The notes under the pieces: model-generated
Databases searched by the model: none
What the model saw: the letters and a program-made list of their open reading frames with translations, nothing else
Told to the model about the DNA's origin: nothing
Shown here: positions 20,054-32,801 of the stretch, piece by piece
Position numbering within the stretch: the first letter of the stretch is position 1
Layout of the letters: each line of letters opens with the position of its first letter
Position numbers and translations under genes: made by a program
Assembly (NCBI GenBank): GCA_963664435.2
Contig: CAXXKM010000001.1
Coordinates: 1,440,001 to 1,504,000 of the forward strand
Direction of reading: 5' to 3'
DNA length: 64,000 nt
Source: Longimicrobiales bacterium
GTDB taxonomy: Bacteria > Gemmatimonadota > Gemmatimonadetes > Longimicrobiales > Gaopeijiaceae

Positions 20054-21046
20054 TCAGCCAGCTCCGGGGTCGGCCGGCCTGAATCTCAACTCGAGAGCGC
20101 GAATGCCGCGGTCGAGCGTGGGACCCAACTCGAAAGCGCCCGCCGCGAGCATTTCGGCGGTCACCCGAAGCTGGTGCACGCCGTACACGTCGTCCTCGGT
20201 CATGTCCACGTCGACCACTCGGATGAGAAGAACGTCGTCGGGGTAGACCGTAAGCACGGGCGTCGAGCCGAAGTGCACGGTCTTCTCCTCGCTGTCGACG
20301 GTTGCCGTGTACCCGACAATGGCGTCCAAGAGGCTTCTTCGTTCGCCGCCAGCGGCGGAAACCCTCGCCTCCAGCGTGGCGACACTGTCGCGCAACTCCT
20401 CCAGCGCGGCCGACTCACCCGGAGTGAGCGCCGGTCCCGGCCGCAGTTCGCTCCTCTCCCTCTTCTCCGCAAGCGCCCGAAGCTCCCGGAACTCCTCTGC
20501 GCCCGCCTCCACGAGCGTCAGCTCCTCGAGCTCGGTCAGCCGCCTCCGCTCCGCCTCCGTGAGTTCCGGTCCGGGCACCACTTCCGAGAGCCTCCGCTTT
20601 TCCACCAGCGGGTCCATGGAGCGGGCGAATCCGGCGGACTCCTCCCGCCAGCGATCCATCCGGTCGCCGAGTTGGTGAATCCTGCGCAGGACGGGTGGAG
20701 CTCGGCGCTGTATCTCCACCCGGTAGTCCGGCCGCGAGAACGTGTCGCCCCCTCCGGCTCCGACGGTGACCCGGCCAACCGACACCGTGTACCCGCGCTC
20801 TTGGACGATCTCCCCGGCATCCGGCGCAACCGACGAGCTCGACCCCGGCCCCGTGGCCCTCGCGCTCGCCGACACGGCTTGGCCTGCGGCAGGCGTTCGG
20901 TCGAGCACGGGTCCGGTCCGCGCGTCGCCCCAGCCGATTCCCCAAGCGAACAGCGGGACCACGGCGAGCACGGGCAGCAGCCCCGGCCAACCCCCGGTTA
21001 CCGTTGGTGGTCCGTGTTCCAGGACTCGGTTGTGGGGCGAACTCAT
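20054..21046 (-). CDS. Membrane-anchored or exported hypothetical protein with C2-like motifs split by a coiled coil
   Basis: ATGA overlap with the upstream gene; hydrophobic N-terminal segment; DTFSRPDYRVEI, an E/R/L-rich helical insert, then LLIRVVDVDMTEDDVYG. Confidence 0.65.
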   Translation of the reverse strand: MSSPHNRVLEHGPPTVTGGWPGLLPVLAVVPLFAWGIGWGDARTGPVLDRTPAAGQAVSASARATGPGSSSSVAPDAGEIVQERGYTVSVGRVTVGAGGGDTFSRPDYRVEIQRRAPPVLRRIHQLGDRMDRWREESAGFARSMDPLVEKRRLSEVVPGPELTEAERRRLTELEELTLVEAGAEEFRELRALAEKRERSELRPGPALTPGESAALEELRDSVATLEARVSAAGGERRSLLDAIVGYTATVDSEEKTVHFGSTPVLTVYPDDVLLIRVVDVDMTEDDVYGVHQLRVTAEMLAAGAFELGPTLDRGIRALELRFRPADPGAG

Positions 21047-23760
21047 GACTTCGTCACTTCGTTTTCGCTCTTGTACTTGCCGCGGACGCCGGCGGCGGTG
21101 ATATCGCCCACCATGCGGTACTTGCCCGATGATGCGTTGTTCAGGTTGTAGCCGCACAGGCTATCCGTCTTCTTCGTGCCCGCGATGTCCTGCCAGCCGG
21201 ACCCTGAGTCTCGCTGCCACCATGTCTCGTGAAAGTCCCATCTCTTCCCGTTGAACGTGCCGTTGGCGGCCAGACAACCCGTATTGCCCGCGCCGAGGCT
21301 GATTCCCCCGACCTGCAACCGAACCCCGCCAGTGTTCGTGATCTTCAGTCCGGTGAGCGTCTTGAAGTCGCCGCCGGTGTCGCCCGCGACCGTGACGCTG
21401 AACGCCTGTTCGGCGGCGAGGCCGCCGGGGTCTCTGGCCGTCACGCGAATCGTCGCTTCGCCATCGGCCACCGCCTTGACGGTTACCGTGTCCCCCGAGA
21501 CGGATGCCGTCGCGACGCTCGCGCTCGAGGAACTGGCCGTGTAGGTGAGGGCGTCGCCGTCCGGGTCGCGGAAGTAGTCGGAGGCGTTCACCGTCGTGCT
21601 GTCGCCCGGCTTCAGCGTTTTCGCGGATATGGAGCCCACGGTCACGGGCGATTGGTTGCTGCTTCCGCCGCCCACGGTCACTTCATTCTCGCTCCTGTAC
21701 TTGCCGCGAACGCCGCCAACGGTGAACTCGCCAACAAACCGGTACACGCCGGCCTTCGCGCTTGCGAGACCGTATCCGCAAAGCTGCCCGTTCTTCCGGG
21801 TGCCGGAGACCTGAGCCCAGGCGGAACCGGCGACGTTGTCCCTTCTCTGCCATTCGGTCCAGTGAACCTCGTAACTCACGCCGTTGATGGTGACCCGACT
21901 GGTCCCAAAGCATCCGCTGTTCGTGAAGTTCCCCCACTTCAGAGCGCCCGCTTGCGTGATCGTCAGCCCGCTTATCGTCTTGTAGTCGCCCCCGGTGTCG
22001 CCCGCCACCGTGACGCGAAACGTCTGTTCCGCCATGAGGCCGCCGGGGTCGGTGGCGGTGACTCGGATGGTTGCAGTGCCTTCCGCCACGGCCGTGACCG
22101 TCCCGATGTCGCCGGACAGCCGCACCGTCGCCACGCTCGTGTTCGAGGACGTGGCGCTAAACGACAACGCGTCGCCGTCCGGGTCACTGAAGTAGTCCGA
22201 TGCGTCCCCCTCGATGCTATCCCCCACCGCGATCACCGTGTCGGGTATGGAACCCACCTTCACAGGGGACCGATTGTCCGAATCGCAGACCGGACCTCCG
22301 TTGTAGCTGTCCTCGTCGATCGCGGCAATCGAGGCGAGCCACGCTTGGAAGCCGATCTCGGCGGGCGAACACAGGTCGGTGCCATGCCAATAGAACGCGT
22401 CGAGTAGCAGGGCCTGCAAATCCAGCGGAAGCGGCCCCGCCAGACCCCCGTTGTTGCTGATCGCCAAGCTGTGCAGGTCGGTGTTCCCAAGTTCGGCGGG
22501 GACCGGCCCGCTCAGTTCGTTGTCGTGCAGCCACAGCACCCGCAGGTCCTCCCAGGCACCATACGACTCCGGCGTGGGAATGGGGCCTGTCAGCTGATTG
22601 TCGTAGAGCCACAACGCCTCGAGATTCCGGAGGCCGGCCAGCTCGGACGGGATCTCGCCGGTCAGCTTGTTCCTCGACAGGGACAGGTTCTCGATGTAGT
22701 AGAGGTTGCCAAGTTCTTTCGGAATCGGGCCAGTCAGTTCGTTCCCCCACAGACGCAGATCGACCAGGTAGTTTCGCAGAGAGCCCAGCTCCGCCGGAAT
22801 CCTGCCCGTGAGCCTGTTGCCGCCCAAATCGAGCCGATGGAGAGACCGCATGGAGCCGACCTCCTTGGGGATCTCGCCGGTCAGCCGGTTGCGCCACAAG
22901 TACAGTCGCTCGAGCCGCGTCAAAGCTCCCACCTCCGGCGGGATCTCACCGGTCAGCTGGTTGTCTTGGAGGTACAGTCGCTCGAGGTCGTTCATCGAGC
23001 CCACCTCCGGCGGGATCTCGCCGGTCAGCCGATTACGTCCAAGCGACAAAACTTCGACGTCGTCCAATGCGCCCAGCTCCGGGGGGAGCGATCCGTCCAG
23101 CCCGCGGTTGTGAAGGTAGAGCCTCTCCACCCCAAAGGTGCCGAGGACCACGCCGTCCCACTCCGTCATCACGGTTGCGGTGTCCCAGTTCAATGACACC
23201 GTGCCGCGCAGTTGGTCCATCGCGGCGAGCAGCGCGTCGCAATCGTCGTCGAAGAAGAGCCAACCGCGTTCGAAATCCAGGGCCGGCGAATCGCGGTGAC
23301 AGACCTCGGGAATGTCCAAGTCCAGACTCCGCGCGATGTTGCTCGCCGCGTTGCCGGCGTTGTCTAGCCTCGCGGGGCTGCGAGCAGGCTCGTCGGTGCG
23401 TGTGGAGTCCGGGACACCGGAGGCCGGCACCAGCCCGTCCAGTTCGTCGTCACGCTCGCCGGCCGAGGGATACCCCAACTCGCTCTCCCGCTCCAATCGA
23501 TCGAGTTCCGCCGGGCCTATCCCGTGAATAGCAAGGCTGGGATTGAGCGGCACGTCAACCGGCGTGTCGTCGAAGGCAGGCGACATCGGCTCGTCGACGC
23601 AGGCGGCCAAGGTCGCGATGACGGCCACAATCAGGGTTGCCCCCGGCGTGAAGAGCTTGGGGTTGCTGGCAAGCATTGAAGGTCTCCTCTTGGATGCGTC
23701 GCGAAGTGCGGTGCTCCGTGATCGAGTTGGTGTGCCGTGGGCTCGCCGGGGCATGGTCAT
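21043..23760 (-). CDS. Lipoprotein with plant-type 24-aa LRRs followed by two [cadherin/Ig-like + Cys-containing beta domain] modules
   Basis: IATLAAC lipobox; repeated LxxLxLxxNxLTGEIPxEVG; DYFSDPDGDAL and DYFRDPDGDAL Ig-like repeats; both modules end GVRGKYxSENEVT. ATGA overlap at 23757-23760. Confidence 0.88.
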   Translation of the reverse strand: MTMPRRAHGTPTRSRSTALRDASKRRPSMLASNPKLFTPGATLIVAVIATLAACVDEPMSPAFDDTPVDVPLNPSLAIHGIGPAELDRLERESELGYPSAGERDDELDGLVPASGVPDSTRTDEPARSPARLDNAGNAASNIARSLDLDIPEVCHRDSPALDFERGWLFFDDDCDALLAAMDQLRGTVSLNWDTATVMTEWDGVVLGTFGVERLYLHNRGLDGSLPPELGALDDVEVLSLGRNRLTGEIPPEVGSMNDLERLYLQDNQLTGEIPPEVGALTRLERLYLWRNRLTGEIPKEVGSMRSLHRLDLGGNRLTGRIPAELGSLRNYLVDLRLWGNELTGPIPKELGNLYYIENLSLSRNKLTGEIPSELAGLRNLEALWLYDNQLTGPIPTPESYGAWEDLRVLWLHDNELSGPVPAELGNTDLHSLAISNNGGLAGPLPLDLQALLLDAFYWHGTDLCSPAEIGFQAWLASIAAIDEDSYNGGPVCDSDNRSPVKVGSIPDTVIAVGDSIEGDASDYFSDPDGDALSFSATSSNTSVATVRLSGDIGTVTAVAEGTATIRVTATDPGGLMAEQTFRVTVAGDTGGDYKTISGLTITQAGALKWGNFTNSGCFGTSRVTINGVSYEVHWTEWQRRDNVAGSAWAQVSGTRKNGQLCGYGLASAKAGVYRFVGEFTVGGVRGKYRSENEVTVGGGSSNQSPVTVGSISAKTLKPGDSTTVNASDYFRDPDGDALTYTASSSSASVATASVSGDTVTVKAVADGEATIRVTARDPGGLAAEQAFSVTVAGDTGGDFKTLTGLKITNTGGVRLQVGGISLGAGNTGCLAANGTFNGKRWDFHETWWQRDSGSGWQDIAGTKKTDSLCGYNLNNASSGKYRMVGDITAAGVRGKYKSENEVTKS

Positions 23761-26700
23761 CGTTCGTTCCCACGGTTCGGGATCCCCCGGCTGAAAAGGA
23801 CCTCGATGTCTTGGGCATTCGCCGCTGCCGCGGCGGGTACGCGGCTCGGGGCCGGGGCCTGTGGCGCACCGTCGAGGATGCCCCGGATCCGGCCGGTTGC
23901 CGGGTCGCGCAGAATGGTCATGGGCAGATCGGTGTCGCGGTCGAGGCCGATCGAGCCGCCCGGGCCTTGCAGCGTGATCGCCACGAGTTCCTGCGTCCAT
24001 GTGACCGGCACGGCGAACGAGAACCCGGCACGCTGGTCCTCGGTGTCGGTGAACTCCGACATGGCGAAGGCCAGGGAGAACAACTCCGTGCCCGCGTCGT
24101 CCGTCCCGGTGAGCGACCATGGACCGTCGGCTTCCGGAAGCGCGGGCGGGGCGTCGATGAAGAAGGAGGGCCTGAGGCGCGGCGCTCCTTCGCCGTCCAG
24201 ACCGCCCCATACGAGCAGCGCGCGGCCGGAGGCGGCCTGGGCGACGTCCGCGGCGGCGATCAGGATCGAGCCGGTCTCGGTCTCGAGGCGGTAGCGGACG
24301 GCGTTGGTGAACTGGTAGTCGCTCGTCCAGGTGGGCTCGCAGTAGGACATGAAGTCCGGCTGGCCCGGCGGCACAAGCTCGCCGGTGCCGAAGTCGTAGC
24401 CCCACGCGCCGATGTTGCCCTCCCCGTAGGGATAGTACCGGTCCGGACCGCCGGCTCCGCCGCATGGCGCGTGGTAGAGATTACGGTTGTGGCCGAACTC
24501 GTGCGCGATGGTTTCGGAGTCGAGGACCGAGAAGCTCGACCAGCTTCCGATGCCGTTCGCCACACCGAGGAGACCGCCCGGCCCCGTGGGTCCGGCCATG
24601 ACCGCCAAGTAGTGGCCGCGCCCGCCCTCGGCGACCCGGATCATCTCGGCCTCCGCGAGGAGCTCGAACCCGTTGTTTGTGGACGTTGCTACGGGCGGGT
24701 GCGCGGTCGCGTCGATCTCGGAGACCGGCAGCAGCAGGTGCGTGCGCTCGAACAGTTCGTGGCCCTCCGGGTCGGCGGCCATGGCGGCAACCGTCGCGAT
24801 GATCGAGGAGTCCGGACTCTCCTGCCAGATGAAGGGCACCAGCGTCACCTCGAAGACCGGCATCGCGCGCACATCCACCGCCATCCGGCCCGCGGCGGGG
24901 ATCCGGCGCGCCACGCCCAGCGCCGGATCGAGCGTCCCGTCCGGATCCGGCTCGATCACGACCTCGAGACCGGGCTGGATCACCCGGCCGGGGATCTCCG
25001 CGTTCACGGACCTCCCCAGGGAACTCTCGTCGATCTTCGCGGGGATGAGATCGGACGCGCCGGGAATGTCCGCCACGTGGGTCACGGCTCCGTCCCGGTA
25101 GAAGGTGGCCCGCACCGGGGGCATGGCGGCGGCTCCTTGCTTTGCCGTGACGAACACGCGTAGCAGCGCGGACTCGCCAGCGACCAGCGGCACCGGGAAC
25201 TCGCGGGACTGGACGGCCTGCGTAAGATAGGCGGCCGCGTCGCCGTCACGGGCACAATGCGCCACCCGCTGGCGCGTCACCCCTTCGAGCCAGTCGAGGA
25301 ACTCCGGGTCCGCCGGCGCGCACAGGCCGGTCCCGGTCGTGTGCAGGTCCTCGAGATGCTCCAGCGCCGTCAGGCCCAGGGGAAGGGGGCCGGCCAAGCC
25401 GGCGTTGCCGGCAAGACCCAGACTCGCAATGCCCGTGAACTCGAGCAGCCCCACGGGCAGGGAGCCGCTGAACTTGTTGGACGAGAGGTCCAGAATCTCC
25501 AGGCTCGGAAAGCTGACGGAACGCGAACGCACGGCCCTCGAAGACCGATCCCGTCTCGTCCAATCCTGGCCCGCAAGGTGCCCTAATTCGTCCGGTTTCG
25601 TAGAGACGGCCATCGACCGGATGCCTTGGGAACTCTCCCAAGGACTGCGCGGTTCCCTCAACGTTTTGTGGGCGGCGGGCGGATCGCTGGCGGACAGCGC
25701 AAGGCGCTGCGCAACACCTGCCCCGACGAGCCCCGTTGGAACGTCGGTCAGTTGGTTACCGGCAAGATCCAGAAAGGACAGGTTCGGCAGCGTGGCGAGT
25801 TCCCGTGGGAACGACGCGAACTTGTTGGACGCGAGTTCCAGCAGTTCCAGGCTCGCCATCCCGCCGAGTCCCGGCGGGACGGACGAAAGCCGGTTGTGTT
25901 CGAGGGCCAGCCATTCCAGGTTCCCCAGGTTACCCAAGTCGTTCGGGATGGACGTCAGATCGTTTTGATGAAGCCACAGAACTTCGAGATTGTCCAGACG
26001 GCCCAGTTCCCTGGGGACGGACGAAAGCCGGTTCGAGCCGATATCCAGCAATAGGAGGCTGACAAGGCTGCCGAACTCCGGTGGAACGGATGTCAACATG
26101 TTGGCCCCGAGTCGCAGCACCTGGAGGTTGTGCAGTTCGCCGAGATCCGCCGGGACGGTCATCAGTTCGTTGCCAAGGATCCACAGCACCTGCAGGCTTG
26201 CCAAACGGCCCAATTCTGGGGGAACAGACGTCAATCGGTTGTATTCGAGGGCAAGCTCTTTCAGGCTGACCAACCCACCCAGCTCCGCCGGGACGGACGT
26301 CAATTGGTTGTTGTTGAGGTGAAGCTCCTGCAAGCGGGGCAACGCGCCCAACTCCGCCGGGATGGGGCCCGAAAGCGAGTTGATCGAGAGGGCAACGTAT
26401 TCGGCCCCGGCCAGCGCGCCCAACTCCGCCGGGATGGACCCGCTCAACTGATTGCGATGGAGGGCCAACAACTTCAGTTCGGTCAGCTCGCCCAACTCGG
26501 GCGGAATCGGCCCGGACAGCCTGTTCCCCCAGAGGCTCAGCGTTTCCAGCTCGGTCAGCTCGCCCAACTCGGGCGGGATCGGCCCCTCCAGTCCATTCCT
26601 CACCAACTTCAGGCTCACGACCCGTCCGTCCGCGTCCGTTTCCACGCCGTACCATGTTCCGAGCGGAGCATCGGCCAGCCAGTTGCCGGACTCCTCCCAG

Positions 26701-28004
26701 TCGGGTCCATCCGTCCCCTCGTACAGGGCTGTAAGGATCTCGCGGTCGGACAGCGGCGGGCATTGCACCCCCGTGCCCTCGTGCCGCGCAAGGCCGGAGA
26801 GCCACTCTTGGAACGATCCTCCGGTCGGAGCGCACAGGCCCGTGTTCGCATAGCGCAGCTCCTCGAGCGGTGTGCGGGAGAGCCCGGTCGGCAGCCGGCC
26901 GGAAAGGGCCGGGTTGTCGCCGATAAGGAGACGGGTCATCGAAGCTAGGTCGCCCAAGCTCGCGGGCAGGCGGCCGACGAGCCCGTTGGCGGCGAGAGCG
27001 AGCGATGCCACCCTGCCGGTGGAATCGGTCTCGACGCCGTACCAGTCCTCCAAGACAACGTCGCCCACCCAGCCGTCCGAGTTCTTCCAGCCCGAGCCAC
27101 CGGTCGTCCGGTGCAGGTCTTCGAGCACCTGAGCGTCCAACTCATTGCAGTATGGGCCCCTAACAATCCGAATGCCCTGTAGCCAAGCCACGAACCGCGC
27201 GGTGCCCGGGGCGCATAGCCCACGATTCCACGCAAACTCGAAGAGAGTGAGGTTAGTCAGCTTCAAGAAGCTCTGGGGAATCAGGCCGGTTAGCTGATTC
27301 CCGTCGAGGCTAAGCTCCACCAGTTTCGTAAGATTGCCGAGTTTGACCGGGATCGTCCCAGTGAGGTCGTTGCCGTGGAGTTGCGCGTATTGCAAGTTGA
27401 CCATGCCACCGAGTTCCGCAGGTATGATGCCTGATAGTTCGTTGCCTGCGAGGCTCATCTGGCCGACGTTGGCCAGATCGCCTAAGCTCGGCGGAATGGG
27501 ACCCGTCAACCTGTTGCGGGCGAGCCAAAGAGTTCCCAGGTTGGCCAGCCGACCCAATTCGGCAGGGATGAGACCGGACAGGTTGTTGTCGGCCATATCA
27601 AGCCGAACGAGTTGAGCCAACCTGCCCAAGTCGGATGGCATGCTGCCCGACAGCCCGTTCTCTTCGAGTTCGAGTGCGGTAACCCGTCCGGCCGCATCCG
27701 TCCGCACGCCGTGCCAGTCCCCGAGCGGCGCATCGGTCAGCCAGTTGGTGTCATTGACCCAATTCGGCCCGTCGGTTGCGTTGTAGAACGCGACCAGGAT
27801 GTCGCGGTCGCCGGCCCGTGCCATCACCATCGCGCCGGGTGCGGCACCGTTTGCGACGGCCGTCGGCGGCGGACCGACTACCGGCTCGTCCGCGCAGGCG
27901 GCAACCCATGCAACCGCCAGGAGCGTGGCTGCCCGAACGCTCGCTTGCCACGCGCTCCGCGCCGGCTGCGGCTGAATGCGATGGAGTTGAAGTTCGCTTC
28001 TCAT
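23757..28004 (-). CDS. Large LRR lipoprotein with C-terminal zinc metalloprotease domain (M66-like)
   Basis: VAWVAAC lipobox; three LRR N-cap modules (e.g. DRDILVAFYNATDGPNW); 24-aa and 23-aa LRR blocks; HEFGHNRNLYHAPCG zinc motif with a DFMSYC Met-turn. Confidence 0.9.
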   Translation of the reverse strand: MRSELQLHRIQPQPARSAWQASVRAATLLAVAWVAACADEPVVGPPPTAVANGAAPGAMVMARAGDRDILVAFYNATDGPNWVNDTNWLTDAPLGDWHGVRTDAAGRVTALELEENGLSGSMPSDLGRLAQLVRLDMADNNLSGLIPAELGRLANLGTLWLARNRLTGPIPPSLGDLANVGQMSLAGNELSGIIPAELGGMVNLQYAQLHGNDLTGTIPVKLGNLTKLVELSLDGNQLTGLIPQSFLKLTNLTLFEFAWNRGLCAPGTARFVAWLQGIRIVRGPYCNELDAQVLEDLHRTTGGSGWKNSDGWVGDVVLEDWYGVETDSTGRVASLALAANGLVGRLPASLGDLASMTRLLIGDNPALSGRLPTGLSRTPLEELRYANTGLCAPTGGSFQEWLSGLARHEGTGVQCPPLSDREILTALYEGTDGPDWEESGNWLADAPLGTWYGVETDADGRVVSLKLVRNGLEGPIPPELGELTELETLSLWGNRLSGPIPPELGELTELKLLALHRNQLSGSIPAELGALAGAEYVALSINSLSGPIPAELGALPRLQELHLNNNQLTSVPAELGGLVSLKELALEYNRLTSVPPELGRLASLQVLWILGNELMTVPADLGELHNLQVLRLGANMLTSVPPEFGSLVSLLLLDIGSNRLSSVPRELGRLDNLEVLWLHQNDLTSIPNDLGNLGNLEWLALEHNRLSSVPPGLGGMASLELLELASNKFASFPRELATLPNLSFLDLAGNQLTDVPTGLVGAGVAQRLALSASDPPAAHKTLREPRSPWESSQGIRSMAVSTKPDELGHLAGQDWTRRDRSSRAVRSRSVSFPSLEILDLSSNKFSGSLPVGLLEFTGIASLGLAGNAGLAGPLPLGLTALEHLEDLHTTGTGLCAPADPEFLDWLEGVTRQRVAHCARDGDAAAYLTQAVQSREFPVPLVAGESALLRVFVTAKQGAAAMPPVRATFYRDGAVTHVADIPGASDLIPAKIDESSLGRSVNAEIPGRVIQPGLEVVIEPDPDGTLDPALGVARRIPAAGRMAVDVRAMPVFEVTLVPFIWQESPDSSIIATVAAMAADPEGHELFERTHLLLPVSEIDATAHPPVATSTNNGFELLAEAEMIRVAEGGRGHYLAVMAGPTGPGGLLGVANGIGSWSSFSVLDSETIAHEFGHNRNLYHAPCGGAGGPDRYYPYGEGNIGAWGYDFGTGELVPPGQPDFMSYCEPTWTSDYQFTNAVRYRLETETGSILIAAADVAQAASGRALLVWGGLDGEGAPRLRPSFFIDAPPALPEADGPWSLTGTDDAGTELFSLAFAMSEFTDTEDQRAGFSFAVPVTWTQELVAITLQGPGGSIGLDRDTDLPMTILRDPATGRIRGILDGAPQAPAPSRVPAAAAANAQDIEVLFSRGIPNRGNER

Positions 28005-28017
28005 GTCGTCCGGTCCT

Positions 28018-29934
28018 TTACCCGTCTCCGCCACGCTGTCCGTCGAGCGGGGCGTATACGTGGATTCGGATGGCCGATGGGTCGCGAGCGGCCCGGCCGT
28101 GCCCGGCCGAGGGCGCGGCGATCGTCAGCCGCGCGCCATCGGAGCAGTTGTTGCGCGTGTTGGATTCGTCCGTCACGGCATTGACGCACAGGCCGATGTA
28201 GATGGTGCCCGGCGCGCTGCCGGCGTTGACCGAGATCGTTAGCGGGAACGCACGTTCCTCCTTGGCGCGTAGCGGCGCAAACGAGTACGACCCGATCTCG
28301 GTGTCGCGGGCGCTGATGATCGGATTCGGGGACCTCATGGCGCGGATCCTTGTCGCCCCCGACGCGACGGTGCCCTGGTTGCGGACGTGGAACATGAACG
28401 TCGCCGATTCGCCCGGCGTCAGCATAGCGAAGACCGGTGCCACGCCCGTGAACGTGAGGTCCGGTCCAAGCGCCACGACGGTGGCCTCGAAGGTCTGGGT
28501 GGCGGTAAGCCCTCCGGGGTCGGAGGCGGAGACCGTGATCGTGGCGGAGCCCTGAGCGAATGCCGCGATGGTGAGGGTCGAGCCCGACACCGAAACGGCG
28601 GCGACCGACGGGTCCGACGACGACGCGCCGTAGCTGAGCGCGTCCCCGTCGGGATCCGTGAAGTGCACCGAGACATCGACCGTCGCCGTCTCGCCGGCGT
28701 GGACCGTCTGGTCCGGCATCGGGATCGCCGGTTCGGGCGCCCGGTTGGGAACAGTCGTCTCGAAGGTCTGGGTGGCGGTAAGCTCTCCGGGGTCGGAGGC
28801 GGAGACCGTGATCGTGGCGGAGCCCTGAGCGAGTGCCGCGATGGTGAGGGTCGAGCCCGACACCGAAACGGCGGCGACCGACGGGTCCGACGACGACGCG
28901 CCGTAGCTGAGCGCGTCCCCGTCGGGATCCGTGAAGTGCACCGAGACATCGAGCGTCGCCGTTTCGCCGGTATGGACCGTCTGGTCCGGGATCGGGATCG
29001 CCGGTTCGGGCGCCCGGTTGGGAACAGTCGTCTCGAAGGTCTGGGTGGCGGTGAGCCCTCCGGGGTCGGAGGCGGAGACCGTGATCGTGGCGGAGCCCTG
29101 AGCGAATGCCGCGATGGTGAGGGTCGAGCCCGACACCGAGACGGCGGCCACCGACGGGTTCGACGACGACGCGCCGTAGCTGAGCGCATCCCCGTCGGGA
29201 TCCGTGAAGTGCACCGAGACATCGACCGTCGCCGTCTCGCCGGCGTGGACCGTCTGGTCCGGCATCGGGATCGCCGGTTCGGGCGCCCGGTTGGGAACAG
29301 TCGTCTCGAAGGTCTGGGTGGCGGTAAGCTCTCCGGGGTCGGAGGCGGAGACCGTGATCGTGGCGGAGCCCTGAGCGAGTGCCGCGATGGTGAGGGTCGA
29401 GCCCGACACCGAAACGGCGGCGACCGACGGGTCCGACGACGACGCGCCGTAGCTGAGCGCGTCCCCGTCGGGATCCGTGAAGTGCACCGAGACATCGAGC
29501 GTCGCCGTTTCGCCGGTATGGACCGTCTGGTCCGGGATCGGGATCGCCGGTTCGGGCGCCCGGTTGGGAACAGTCGTCTCGAAGGTCTGGGTGGCGGTGA
29601 GCCCTCCGGGGTCGGAGGCGGAGACCGTGATCGTGGCGGAGCCCTGAGCGAATGCCGCGATGGTGAGGGTCGAGCCCGACACCGAGACGGCGGCCACCGA
29701 CGGGTTCGACGACGACGCGCCGTAGCTGAGCGCATCCCCGTCGGGATCCGTGAAGTGCACCGAGACATCGACCGTCGCCGTCTCGCCGGCGTGGACCGTC
29801 TGGTCCGGCATCGGGATCGCCGGTTCGGGCGCCCGGTTGGGAACAGTCGACGGTGCCGCTGGCCCATCGCCGCAGGCCGCCGTCAGGATCGTCGCCAATA
29901 GCGCGACGCCGACATGGTTGCCTTGGGGTCTCAC
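28018..29934 (-). CDS. Lipoprotein adhesin with five cadherin/Ig-like repeats and a C-terminal CARDB-like domain
   Basis: ILTAAC lipobox; 5 x 91-aa NRAP...FTDPDGDALSY...SDPG repeats; PDLT...VRNQGT...VTDESNTRNN CARDB-like pattern; GTG start. Confidence 0.88.
   Translation of the reverse strand: MRPQGNHVGVALLATILTAACGDGPAAPSTVPNRAPEPAIPMPDQTVHAGETATVDVSVHFTDPDGDALSYGASSSNPSVAAVSVSGSTLTIAAFAQGSATITVSASDPGGLTATQTFETTVPNRAPEPAIPIPDQTVHTGETATLDVSVHFTDPDGDALSYGASSSDPSVAAVSVSGSTLTIAALAQGSATITVSASDPGELTATQTFETTVPNRAPEPAIPMPDQTVHAGETATVDVSVHFTDPDGDALSYGASSSNPSVAAVSVSGSTLTIAAFAQGSATITVSASDPGGLTATQTFETTVPNRAPEPAIPIPDQTVHTGETATLDVSVHFTDPDGDALSYGASSSDPSVAAVSVSGSTLTIAALAQGSATITVSASDPGELTATQTFETTVPNRAPEPAIPMPDQTVHAGETATVDVSVHFTDPDGDALSYGASSSDPSVAAVSVSGSTLTIAAFAQGSATITVSASDPGGLTATQTFEATVVALGPDLTFTGVAPVFAMLTPGESATFMFHVRNQGTVASGATRIRAMRSPNPIISARDTEIGSYSFAPLRAKEERAFPLTISVNAGSAPGTIYIGLCVNAVTDESNTRNNCSDGARLTIAAPSAGHGRAARDPSAIRIHVYAPLDGQRGGDG
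28488..29848 (-). repeat. Five near-identical 273-bp tandem repeats in A-B-A-B-mosaic order
   Basis: ccggttgggaacagtcg recurs at 28741, 29014, 29287, 29560 and 29833; diagnostic residues alternate between units. Confidence 0.95.
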
Positions 29935-29983
29935 TGCCCGCTACCCGCCTTGGCGGCGGCTCCCCAACCCTAACCGATCAATG

Positions 29984-30259
29984 CTACTGAATTGCGGCGA
30001 ATGTGCGCGACAGCGGTGCTGACGTGGCCCGCGAGAGCCGCAAGGAAGAAAAGGAGGGGGTCGGTGGGTGGACAGAGAAAGCGCCGATGCGCGGGAAATC
30101 GCCGAGTTTATAGCCGGCTCGGCTCGGCTCGGCTCGGCTCGGCTCGGCTCGGCTCGGCTCGGCTCGGCTCGGCTCGGCTCGGCTCGGCTCGGCTCGGCTC
30201 GGCTCGGCTCGGCTCGGCTCGGCTCGGCTTCTTAACGATGCCCCGTAATCAATACTCAT
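29984..30259 (-). other. Putative leader ORF containing the pentanucleotide tract (SRAEP repeats)
   Basis: ATGs at 30259, 30277 and 30307 read in frame through (GAGCC)n to TAG at 29984; translation is unproven. Confidence 0.4.
30116..30229. repeat. Perfect pentanucleotide simple sequence repeat, (GGCTC)22 + GGCT
   Basis: Counted directly; about 180 bp upstream of the surface-protein operon. Confidence 0.97.
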
Positions 30260-30966
30260 GGCCGAGTCAACTCCCATCGCTCCGGCTGTCGGCTTCTCAG
30301 GAATCATGAAAGCTACAGAAGGCTCCCCTCGCCAGCAAACGCCATGGGTGACCGGGGGAGGTGCAGGCGCATCCGCGCGATGCCCATCATCGGTGCGTCA
30401 GGTGCCTTCGCGGGCGACCGCCTCCGCCTCGCGCCCGTCCGGTCGCTCCTTCGGGCAACGGTGGCGGTCTCCGCCACCACCGCGTTCCCTACCCCTCGTG
30501 AACCCAAGATCCGTCGATCACGGCGGCGTTCCGGTTCGTAGCTCCCCCGAAATCTCTCACAAACGTCCGAAAATGGCCTGTGAGCCCGTCGTGGAAATGC
30601 CGGTGCGCCAGATCAGGTCTCGGTGCCCGCGAGTCGGCTCGCGGCAGCGGCCGGCACCGCGCCCCTGCAGGTTGGACCGCCGATGCGCCCGAACGACACG
30701 GCGCTTCGGCACATGTGCGAAGCAGGCCTCCGGGAACTTCGGCGAAGAGGAGGAGCGGGGCGCGGAAGTCCCGCCAATCAAGTACGTTTTTCCCGCTTTC
30801 GCGGCACGGCCCAGCAAGGTTCAGTACAACGGCAGGAAGCGCAGATCGTGCAGCCCTGTATGACTTTATAAGATTTTCTGCCGTGATGCAGGCCACCCTT
30901 GCTCCGCCGTTACGTGAGGGTTGGTGCGGGTGATCGTTCCGTTACCGTCCGTCGTCCTTCAGCGGC

Positions 30967-31782
30967 CTAGCGCCCCTGCGTCAGTTCGCGGATCTGGCGC
31001 ACCGCCGCCTCCACCTTGAGCTGGACGCCCATTCTGCCGTAGACCACCGAGGCCTTGGTGGGATCGCCGGACACGCCGCTGCCCTCATACCCGCCCCCGG
31101 GTGCGAGCTCGCCCTGGCGGATGTGCTCGGGCGCGATGTAGAGAAGCTGGGACGTGTCGCTGATGCCGGCGTGCCCGCCGATGGTCGCCGCGTCGTAGCC
31201 GTGCTCCTCCATGAGCCAGTCGCGGAAGCCGTTGCCCGAGTAGTAGTCGCCGACGAAGTGGACCCGGCCCTCCTTCCCTGCGCCCGCCCACTCCTCGTTC
31301 AGCATCTCGGACACGGTGCGCATGCCGTTCTGGTTTCCGCCGCTGTCGCCGATGAAGACGATGTCGGTGAAGCCGTGCACCTCGAGGCTCCGGGCCGCGT
31401 ATTCCAGCAGCTTCATGAAGTGCTCGTTGGGAAGCGTGATCGCCCCCGCGTAGCGCATGTGTCCGGTGGGCCCGTCGGGCCCGTCGATGGCGCCTTCGGG
31501 AACATAGGCGATGACCGGCGCCACCAGCGCGTTCCCCAGCTCGCGCGCGATCAGGTCCGACGCGTGGTTGATGATGAACTTGTGCTTGCCGAGCACCATG
31601 TGGGGCCCGTTCTGCTCGGTGCCCGCGGTGGGCACGATGATGGTCGTGACCCCCTCGTCGATGGCGGCCCGCACCTCGGTCCAGGTCAACTCGTCGAGGA
31701 AGACGGTGTTGGGCCGCTGCGCGGCGGCGGCGCTCGCGGTCACGAGTACGGCAAGGGTGGCGGAAGTCAGCGTGCGGATCAT
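30967..31782 (-). CDS. Creatininase family protein with signal peptide
   Basis: ELTWTEV, PTAGTEQNGPHM, GDSGGN, GGHAGISDTS, GVSGDP motifs; GGAGG RBS. Confidence 0.88.
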   Translation of the reverse strand: MIRTLTSATLAVLVTASAAAAQRPNTVFLDELTWTEVRAAIDEGVTTIIVPTAGTEQNGPHMVLGKHKFIINHASDLIARELGNALVAPVIAYVPEGAIDGPDGPTGHMRYAGAITLPNEHFMKLLEYAARSLEVHGFTDIVFIGDSGGNQNGMRTVSEMLNEEWAGAGKEGRVHFVGDYYSGNGFRDWLMEEHGYDAATIGGHAGISDTSQLLYIAPEHIRQGELAPGGGYEGSGVSGDPTKASVVYGRMGVQLKVEAAVRQIRELTQGR

Positions 31783-31814
31783 GGGTCCTCCCGGAAGGCG
31801 CGTCAGCGATGTCG

Positions 31815-32801
31815 TCACGGCTGTAGAATGGTGCATCCCTGCGTCTGCCGCGACTCCAGCGCGCGATGGGCCTCGGCGGCTTCTGAAAGCGGAAAGCGCT
31901 GGCCGATGTTGAGCCGGATGCGCCCGGCCTGGATGTGCCCGAGCAGTTCGCCGGATGCTTCTTCCAGGTCCTCGCGCCGGTCGATGTAGGGCTTGAGCGA
32001 GGGACGGGCGACGCTGATCCCTTTCGCGCTCAGGCGCAGCAGGTTGAGGGGCGGCACCGGACCCGAGGCGTTGCCGAAGGTGATCATCATGCCGAAGCGG
32101 GCCAGGCACTCCATCGAGCCCTCGAAGGTGGCCTTGCCGACGCCGTCGAAGACCACCGGGACACCCCGTCCGCCGGTGATTTCGCGCACCCGCTCGACGA
32201 AATCCTCTTCCTTGTAGAGGATGATGTGGTCGGTGCCGTGCGCCCGCGCCAGGCGGCCCTTTTCGGGGCTGCCCGCGGTGCCGATCACGGTGGCGCCCAG
32301 CGCCTTGCACCACTGGCCGAGGATGGTGCCGACTCCGCCCGCGGCCGCGTGCACGAGGACGGTCTCGCCGGCGCTCACCCGGTAGGTGCGGCGGCAGAGA
32401 TACCAGGCGGTCATGCCCTTCAGCATGGCTGCCGCAGCGGCCTCGTAGTCCACGCCCTCGGGCACCGCGACCAGCTGGTCGGCGGGCATCACGCGCCGTT
32501 CGCAGTAGCCGCCCGGCACGCTCCCGTACGCGACCCGGTCGCCGGGCTGGAAGGTCGGTCCGTCCGCGGCCGCCGGCCCGGCCGCCTCCACCACCCCGGC
32601 CGCCTCCATCCCCAGCACTGCGGGCAGCGACGGTATCGGGTAGAGCCCGCTGCGGTGATAGGTGTCGATGAAGTTCAGCCCGACCGCCTCCTGACGGACG
32701 AGCACCTCGCCCGGTCCGGGTTCCGGCAGGGGCACTTGTTCCCAGCGCATCACCTCCGGGCCCCCGAGCCCGTGGATGCGGATAGCCATGGTGTTGGTCA
32801 T
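31815..32801 (-). CDS. qor: NADPH:quinone oxidoreductase (zeta-crystallin/MDR family)
   Basis: GLNFIDTYHRSGLY, LKGMTAWYL, HAAAGGVG, VFDGVGKATF, FGNASG. Confidence 0.92.
   Translation of the reverse strand: MTNTMAIRIHGLGGPEVMRWEQVPLPEPGPGEVLVRQEAVGLNFIDTYHRSGLYPIPSLPAVLGMEAAGVVEAAGPAAADGPTFQPGDRVAYGSVPGGYCERRVMPADQLVAVPEGVDYEAAAAAMLKGMTAWYLCRRTYRVSAGETVLVHAAAGGVGTILGQWCKALGATVIGTAGSPEKGRLARAHGTDHIILYKEEDFVERVREITGGRGVPVVFDGVGKATFEGSMECLARFGMMITFGNASGPVPPLNLLRLSAKGISVARPSLKPYIDRREDLEEASGELLGHIQAGRIRLNIGQRFPLSEAAEAHRALESRQTQGCTILQP

Follow-up and report, generated by a model that had tools for sequence, protein, structure and literature searches.

A minus-strand cluster of lipoprotein genes in a sponge-associated Longimicrobiales bacterium is preceded by a long, perfect pentamer repeat, which raises the question of whether the number of repeat units sets the expression of the genes behind it. 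The locus lies in a 64,000-nucleotide stretch of contig CAXXKM010000001.1 (positions 1,440,001 to 1,504,000), here called the window, whose own coordinates are used throughout. The genome of the window (G000) measures 4.51 Mb with 68% GC, and the sequencing runs containing window DNA are sponge metagenomes. An original prediction, made from the letters alone, held that the repeat count in a leader open reading frame (ORF) acts as a three-state switch for the genes downstream. We propose that the tract is a hypermutable contingency-locus repeat in a short translated leader, whose unit number modulo 3 would set the frame in which ribosomes exit, and which at the window locus would act by stop and restart; judging from sequence comparison, we put the probability of this reading at roughly 0.48. 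The tract module probably switches surface-lipoprotein genes on and off.

The tract and its leader frames

The perfect period-5 tract matches its unit at 100% of positions and can be read as (GGCTC)22 at 30116-30225 on the plus strand or as (CGGCT)23. Elsewhere in the window, repeats with a unit of at least 4 nt reach 3.2 copies at most, which excludes a chance origin. The 5-nt unit is not a multiple of 3, as a frame switch requires. Because the tract yields no stop codon in any frame on either strand, an ORF that spans it is to be expected and proves nothing alone. The tract and the elements around it are as follows.

30310 to 30338, minus strand: candidate promoter P1, TTGCTG (30338-30333), 17-nt spacer, TAGCTT (30315-30310)
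30265 to 30275, minus strand: GGGAG, Shine-Dalgarno (SD)-like, followed directly by a TTGACT box, from leader comparison
30230 to 30237, minus strand: CGTTAAGA box adjoining the tract, holding a TAA in a non-leader frame
30115 to 30229, minus strand: perfect (GAGCC)n tract, 115 nt, translated as (AEPSR)n in any frame
29984 to 30307, minus strand: leader ORF in the present frame, ATG at 30307, 30277 or 30259, MSIDYGASLR(SRAEP)n, ending at TAG 29986-29984
30108 to 30110, minus strand: TAA, leader stop with one unit fewer (downstream frame 1, offset 5)
29941 to 29943, minus strand: TAG, leader stop with one unit more

The three minus-strand ATGs share one frame and are all open through the tract; a product started at ATG 30259 would have 91 amino acids. 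At the assembled tract length, the leader stops 49 nt ahead of the GTG at 29934 that begins the first lipoprotein gene. With one additional unit, the leader shares the frame of the lipoprotein gene and stops at TAG 29943-29941, 6 nt ahead of that GTG, while the loss of one unit leads to the TAA at 30110-30108. This TAA is contributed by TATAAACT (30112-30105), which adjoins the tract. Between positions -20 and -4 before GTG 29934, only AAGG resembles an SD motif, and the SD is thus weak. Re-reading of the sequence confirmed every coordinate first given for the leader ATGs, the perfect tract and the three frame outcomes, and the weak SD was likewise borne out.

Upstream of the leader, the P1 hexamers fit those of G000 tRNA promoters (TTGACA-N17/18-TAnnnT, with TATCTT common). 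At the same position, sister loci carry TTTGCT or TTTGTC, a spacer of N17-18 and TATCTT, the hexamers being kept while the spacers vary. A consensus scan for promoters and terminators over 29800-31100 made no call, P1 included. ATG 30307 lies 2 nt past the -10 hexamer of P1 and is probably not transcribed. The source organism has a canonical anti-SD, and SD motifs are enriched upstream of its start codons. A Bacteroidetes-type -33/-7 promoter was also considered and was dropped, the tRNA promoters showing the ordinary TTGACA/TAnnnT consensus.

Just upstream of the tract, stop codons block two of the three frames. Of 21 leader variants, 16 have a frame closed by a stop no more than 8 nt away, compared with 12.6% at random genome positions. 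CGTTA is kept at the DNA level across leaders that read it in different frames.

Recurrence and length variation of the module

The window tract is one of exactly four long pentamer tracts in G000, all of them (GAGCC)n with 18-26 units; other repeats in this genome with a unit of at least 4 nt do not exceed about 4 copies. All four share a leader composed of a G-rich box, TTGAC, an ATG, the peptide M-x-I-D-Y-x-x-x-L-R, CGTTA and the tract, and about 130 nt upstream of the tract are common to three of the four loci. Each precedes a gene for a secreted protein or lipoprotein. Within the family, tracts of at least 6 units were found in 19 of 314 genomes and 4 of 81 genera, a lower bound, since in draft assemblies the tract often lies at a contig end.

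A check proposed with the original prediction, to look for the same tract upstream of other leucine-rich-repeat (LRR) operons, gave a positive result at two loci of relatives (L017 and L018), and the tract also precedes Big_2, cadherin and fn3 lipoprotein genes. The products behind the tracts are lipoproteins with Big_9, LRR, Big_2, fn3 and cadherin-like domains, a surface-protein pattern spread over several loci, four of them in G000. The genes behind the tract in relatives are:

L017 and L018: LRR and Big_2 lipoproteins
L052: Big_2 protein
L019 and L045: fn3/cadherin-like proteins
L028: Big_9 protein
L024: di-haem peroxidase lipoprotein
L030: Tat-signal epimerase
L023 (G048:C161): Type ISP restriction enzyme

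At the last of these, the frame after the tract matches positions 112-339 of the 342-position profile of the Type ISP C-terminal specificity domain (Pfam, E=2e-65), and the tract therefore appears to lie inside the gene. L023 is a candidate phase-variable restriction system; its contig begins 31 nt ahead of the tract.

A scan of genome contigs for (GAGCC) tracts of at least 10 units returned at least 114 stretches from many phyla. The tract-bearing records include Amycolatopsis, Nocardia, Actinoplanes, Streptomyces, Saccharibacillus, Burkholderia and Pandoraea, as well as Moraxella, Gemmiger, Ruminococcus, Collinsella, Entotheonella, Nitrospirales and Acidobacteriota. Two designs are seen across phyla (L061-L140). 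In one, a promoter adjoins the tract and the gene has its own ATG beyond it; in the other, a leader ORF traverses the tract. At loci of Ruminococcus, Gemmiger and other Clostridia (L083, L084, L124), TTGACA boxes face the tract from both sides.

The length of the tract varies strongly between genomes. One cassette is present in G000, G017 and G046 with flanks that are 99.8-100% identical over about 11 kb, and its tracts measure 112, 207 and 67 nt, respectively, which identifies the tract as hypermutable. Its length thus changes far faster than point substitution alters the flanks, in agreement with the earlier view of the tract as slippage-prone. Among ten copies of this cassette, the tract ranges from 32 to 215 nt. 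At the window locus itself, the tract of 115 nt compares with one of 138 nt in the ortholog of G013 (with one 3-nt interruption). Metagenome contigs X1, X3 and X10, compared over window 29650-30165, end at the tract edge, and X9 matches only the repeated gene body.

Several further observations concern the mobility and surroundings of the module. Between C3:5459-18953 of G000 and the corresponding loci of G017 (L058) and G046 (L059), at least 11 kb lie in segments that are 99.8-100% identical between species representatives, one of which is placed in another genus; the differences fall at the tract, with a few more in the G017 flanks. Such near-identity points to a very recent transfer of the segment carrying the tract locus. 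G000 contains many repeats of 1.2-2 kb that resemble insertion sequences (IS). In G054, one unit is present in three copies (L046, L047, L048), each with two outward-facing leader-plus-tract modules about 2.1 kb apart; the gene for a cadherin-like lipoprotein is in frame in 3/3 copies, and that for a di-haem peroxidase lipoprotein is out of frame in 3/3. GGT[CG]ACC was considered as a pair of inverted repeats flanking the module and was rejected, no locus having the motif on both sides.

Between a creatininase-like gene and the leader of the window locus lies a dispersed element of about 150 nt (window ~30760-30925, minus strand). BLAST finds 22 hits to it in G000 at E<1e-8 and about 40 at 1e-3, with a conserved core, and one copy is also located upstream of the C3b tract. 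Paired changes in the element, for example in CGGCAG...CTGCCG and in a CCGC-GAAA-GCGG hairpin, suggest RNA helices; an Rfam search of window 29000-32000 with E up to 1 gave no match. G000 also contains eight G or C homopolymer runs of 10-14 nt that may be further contingency sites (C1:1214127; C2:134982, 450515 and 1024999; C3:65743, 392617, 1658429 and 1670138).

Possible translation of the leader and the promoter alternative

Whether ribosomes read the tract can be judged from the genes that follow it. Of 15 independent downstream families, 14 have no stop in the gene frame between the tract and the gene. Five families (C2a/C3b/L015, L018/L020, L029, L051 and L052) lack any ATG, GTG or TTG in the interval from the tract to the signal peptide's hydrophobic core, so that initiation would have to occur upstream, with the tract read as (AEPSR)n. 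In silico, the repeat accordingly falls inside the translated part of the gene at C2a/C3b/L015, L018, L029, L051 and L052. Past the tract, an off-frame stop occurs within 12 nt in 7 of the 15 families, against 19% at random positions (P=0.014). Three G054 paralogues with tracts of 90, 85(+2) and 105 nt all keep the frame of the leader ATG; among the 26 assessable loci, 11 are in frame, and the four G000 loci are all out of frame. A query of leader plus repeat matches 228 database proteins (E up to 0.01), and among the best 120 of these, many read as an N-terminal leader, the repeat and a signal peptide; this is weak evidence, because gene callers take any long ORF.

The box ahead of the start codon was assessed across phyla in 86 distinct leaders, 39 of which carry TTGAC 30-46 nt upstream of the tract (60 nt in one case). 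An SD-like motif precedes the box in 23 of these 39. In 31, a start codon (ATG or GTG) whose frame stays open into the tract comes after the box, at a distance of 0-6 nt in 25 (counted from the table), and only two leaders have a strict TAnnnT -10 hexamer at promoter spacing.

The same box is central to the alternative that survives best, a serious contender that we nonetheless consider unlikely. It holds that TTGACT-N17-TACGGG is a promoter firing near CGTTAA, that the tract forms the first ~115 nt of the mRNA, and that the leader ATGs are untranscribed; changes in tract length would then have graded effects on the level, folding or processing of the mRNA, a behaviour for which hmw1A provides a precedent (PMC12721329). 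The spacing of TTGAC(A), 30-46 nt upstream of the tract in those 39 leaders from several phyla, fits this model, and the box equals the -35 element of G000 tRNA promoters, including its GTGTTGACACG context. Other lineages have TATGCT, TACGCT, CATAAT or TATAAT as a -10 element 1-6 nt ahead of the tract, and several genes have their own ATG directly past it. However, none of the 11 Longimicrobiales hexamers at N17 (TACGGG, TACACA, TACGCA and others of the form TACnnn/TATnnn) has a T at position 6, which nearly all G000 tRNA-promoter -10 elements read do have, and the consensus scan called no promoter in 29800-31100. A model with an untranslated tract also leaves five gene families without a start codon past it. 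In addition, the leader has a better promoter upstream (TTGCTG-N17-TAGCTT at the window locus, TTTGyy-N17/18-TATCTT in its sisters). At the window locus itself, a leader ORF with an SD crosses the tract; the hexamer TACGGG is among those without the T, and the scan leaves TTGACT-N17-TACGGG uncalled.

Translation of the tract must in turn be weighed against several observations. TTGACA is the -35 consensus of G000. In other phyla (for example L083, L084, L130 and L135), a good -10 element lies just upstream of the tract and the gene's own ATG after it, so that the tract is a 5' untranslated region (5' UTR), and by our own grouping roughly one in two independent leader families with TTGAC resembles the promoter type. 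The gene's own ATG is found 0-17 nt past the tract in L017, where it spans the tract end, in L019 and in the G054 'PPGLTMPKC' genes. Translation from the leader would also place a hydrophilic stretch, 45 to more than 100 residues long, before the signal peptide. Finally, the RNA folds no better than shuffled sequences (z +1.0 for the linker and +0.6 for leader plus tract). On balance, we favour a translated leader over the 5'-UTR model in the Longimicrobiales lineage.

Possible coupling at the window locus, precedents and meaning

Unlike the five families described above, the window locus does not allow a fusion of leader and gene, since the gene-frame path is cut by TAG 29943-29941 before GTG 29934. 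Its layout is that of a coupled upstream ORF (uORF): in the frame reached with one unit more, the TAG is followed after 6 nt by the GTG, which has a weak ribosome-binding site. A search of 73 genomes found a sole ortholog of the window linker, in G013, with flanks 95-98% identical. G013 keeps the TAG and the 6-nt spacing, with TTG as the start where G000 has GTG, and a 9-nt indel in the linker leaves the frame relation intact. The G013 leader is in the coupled frame and ends at the TAG. Contigs of three runs/studies are identical to the window at TAG and GTG. The start codon is also predicted to be paired, as follows:

30070 to 30080, minus strand: 5' arm UUUCUCUGUCC of a putative helix with 29929-29939, the 3' arm that holds the GTG start, in the minimum-free-energy (MFE) and centroid folds

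G000 and G013 differ by three substitutions in the linker, two of which lie at neighbouring positions in this predicted helix. The arrangement in G013 supports coupling as a possible variant at the window locus. Counting against it are the 171-nt window linker, whose GC content at third codon positions (GC3) is 0.58 and not coding-like, and the fact that conservation of the TAG rests on one ortholog comparison at ~97% identity.

The original prediction had the repeat number set coupling or polarity rather than shift the frame of the structural gene. At the window locus, the comparison is in line with this: the TAG cuts the gene-frame path, and G013 retains the spacing from TAG to start as well as the frame. 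It does not hold in general, since in at least five sister families the tract frame enters the signal peptide without a separate start codon. Any coupling at the window locus therefore appears to be secondary, a modification of an opa-like fusion switch.

It is also conceivable, though improbable, that the window locus is a relic, in which the TAG interrupted an earlier in-frame fusion, translation starts at the GTG at any tract length, and the tract is either drifting neutrally or carried along in a mobile 5' module. The low GC3 of the linker, which is not coding-like, is what such a history would leave, and by our own reading of the sequences, linker substitutions between the paralogues C2a and C3b are mostly non-synonymous. 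The module travels on mobile DNA, as segments of at least 11 kb identical between genera and the three copies of one unit in G054 indicate, and all four G000 loci are out of frame. A relic is harder to reconcile with a tract that is perfect over 115 nt, a kind of repeat that decays quickly without selection, or with the survival of the TAG, the 6-nt spacing to the start and the frame relation through a 9-nt indel in G013; moreover, the start codon (GTG/TTG) and its SD are weak. The suggestion that TATAAACT is a -10-like element, through which tract length would alter a promoter downstream of the repeat, is very improbable: although AT-rich in a 68% GC genome and adjoining the tract, this sequence is confined to the window locus and its ortholog, the other 14 downstream families being unrelated there, it has no -35 partner, since the tract fills that position, it is not called by the consensus scan, and the TAA stop of one leader frame lies within it.

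Returning to the contingency-locus reading, we propose a mechanism that builds on the demonstrated anatomy, recurrence and variable length of the tract, and in which leader translation, coupling and the effect on expression are what we infer. The module of about 170 nt, which recurs before many surface-protein genes in the sponge-associated Longimicrobiales lineage, would comprise a promoter ~85 nt upstream of the tract, the SD-like GGGAG with TTGAC, an ATG with a 10-residue leader peptide, and (GAGCC)n. Slippage would alter the unit number, and this number modulo 3 would decide the frame in which ribosomes exit. At sister loci, one frame would enter the signal peptide directly, giving an opa-like ON/OFF switch. 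At the window locus, ribosomes reading 24 CGGCT units would stop at the TAG and reinitiate at the GTG 6 nt on, a coupled ON state in which their opening of the helix that holds the GTG would help reinitiation. The assembled 23 units, with the stop 49 nt short of the GTG, are predicted to be OFF or low, and 22 units, with the stop right past the tract, to be OFF. More tentatively, and with the odds somewhat against it, the G-rich box, TTGAC, start codon and (GAGCC)n may together form a portable switch that moves between loci and lineages and gives surface genes stochastic ON/OFF or three-level expression; in sponge-associated bacteria, it would make individual cells differ in their eukaryote-like LRR, cadherin and fn3 lipoproteins, and the version at the window locus would act by stop and restart on a whole cluster of three genes.

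That cluster runs on the minus strand from 29934 to 21043 and holds three lipoprotein genes with intergenic gaps of 13 and 80 nt; at 8.9 kb, it is shorter than the ~10-kb operon first described.

28018 to 29934, minus strand: gene 1, 638-aa lipoprotein, GTG start 29934, signal ending VALLATILTAAC, Cys codon 29874-29872
23757 to 28004, minus strand: gene 2, LRR lipoprotein, likely start ATG 28004, signal AATLLAVAWVAAC
21043 to 23676, minus strand: gene 3, lipoprotein with LRR, Big_2 and Big_9, likely start ATG 23676, signal LIVAVIATLAAC

After its signal, the gene 1 product consists of five Big_9/cadherin-like repeats. The repeats are encoded by five 273-nt units (28486-29849) with 96% identity, so the array appears to be young or homogenised, and its copy number could change by recombination.

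Simple repeats that drive phase variation are a textbook feature of a few host-adapted pathogens. In the lic loci of Haemophilus influenzae, (CAAT)n follows alternative ATGs that start translation in different frames of one gene. The present tract likewise follows 5' start codons, and its three frames would have different translation outcomes; unlike in lic, the leader starts share one frame, and the third outcome would be stop-restart coupling. The Neisseria opa genes are reminiscent of the module in a different way, as they carry a CTCTT pentamer in the region coding for the leader peptide (PMC6803597). In the present module, as in opa, a 5-nt unit would lie in the 5' coding part, ahead of or within the export signal, and the frame would set ON or OFF; in both, several loci per genome share the repeat and the products are surface proteins. 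The sister loci L018, L051, L052, C2a and L029 fit this design. In contrast to opa, the repeat here would encode a hydrophilic (AEPSR)n before the signal peptide and not its hydrophobic core, the module precedes unrelated genes, the window locus would use stop and restart and not fusion, and the host is a high-GC sponge-associated Longimicrobiales bacterium and not a pathogen. In H. influenzae hmw1A, (ATCTTTC)n lies in the 5' UTR, and expression is graded and falls as the repeat lengthens, through a hairpin cut by RNase III (PMC12721329). The present tract would share with it a position between a promoter and the start of an adhesin-type gene and transcription as leader RNA; the two cases differ in that no comparable hairpin is predicted here and in that the present locus has a leader ORF with three-state frame logic.

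A full-text literature search found no account of phase variation by repeats in sponge symbionts or in the eukaryote-like proteins that they carry, and a literature search with the repeat string returned nothing bacterial among the top-ranked matches. What is new is the host group together with the targets, the eukaryote-like surface lipoproteins of a sponge-associated Longimicrobiales bacterium. New as well are the shared, portable leader module, the proposed stop-restart variant and the occurrence of the same pentamer in at least 114 stretches of many phyla. A shared leader and one pentamer in many phyla suggest a reusable regulatory cassette that can be found by sequence alone, to which the window locus would add an uncommon design, with the repeat setting translational coupling and not the frame of the structural gene. 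Should the switch prove real, LRR and cadherin-like surface proteins would vary stochastically in symbionts that are uncultured, non-pathogenic and high in GC, which would bear on the escape of symbionts from host phagocytosis and on phage pressure.

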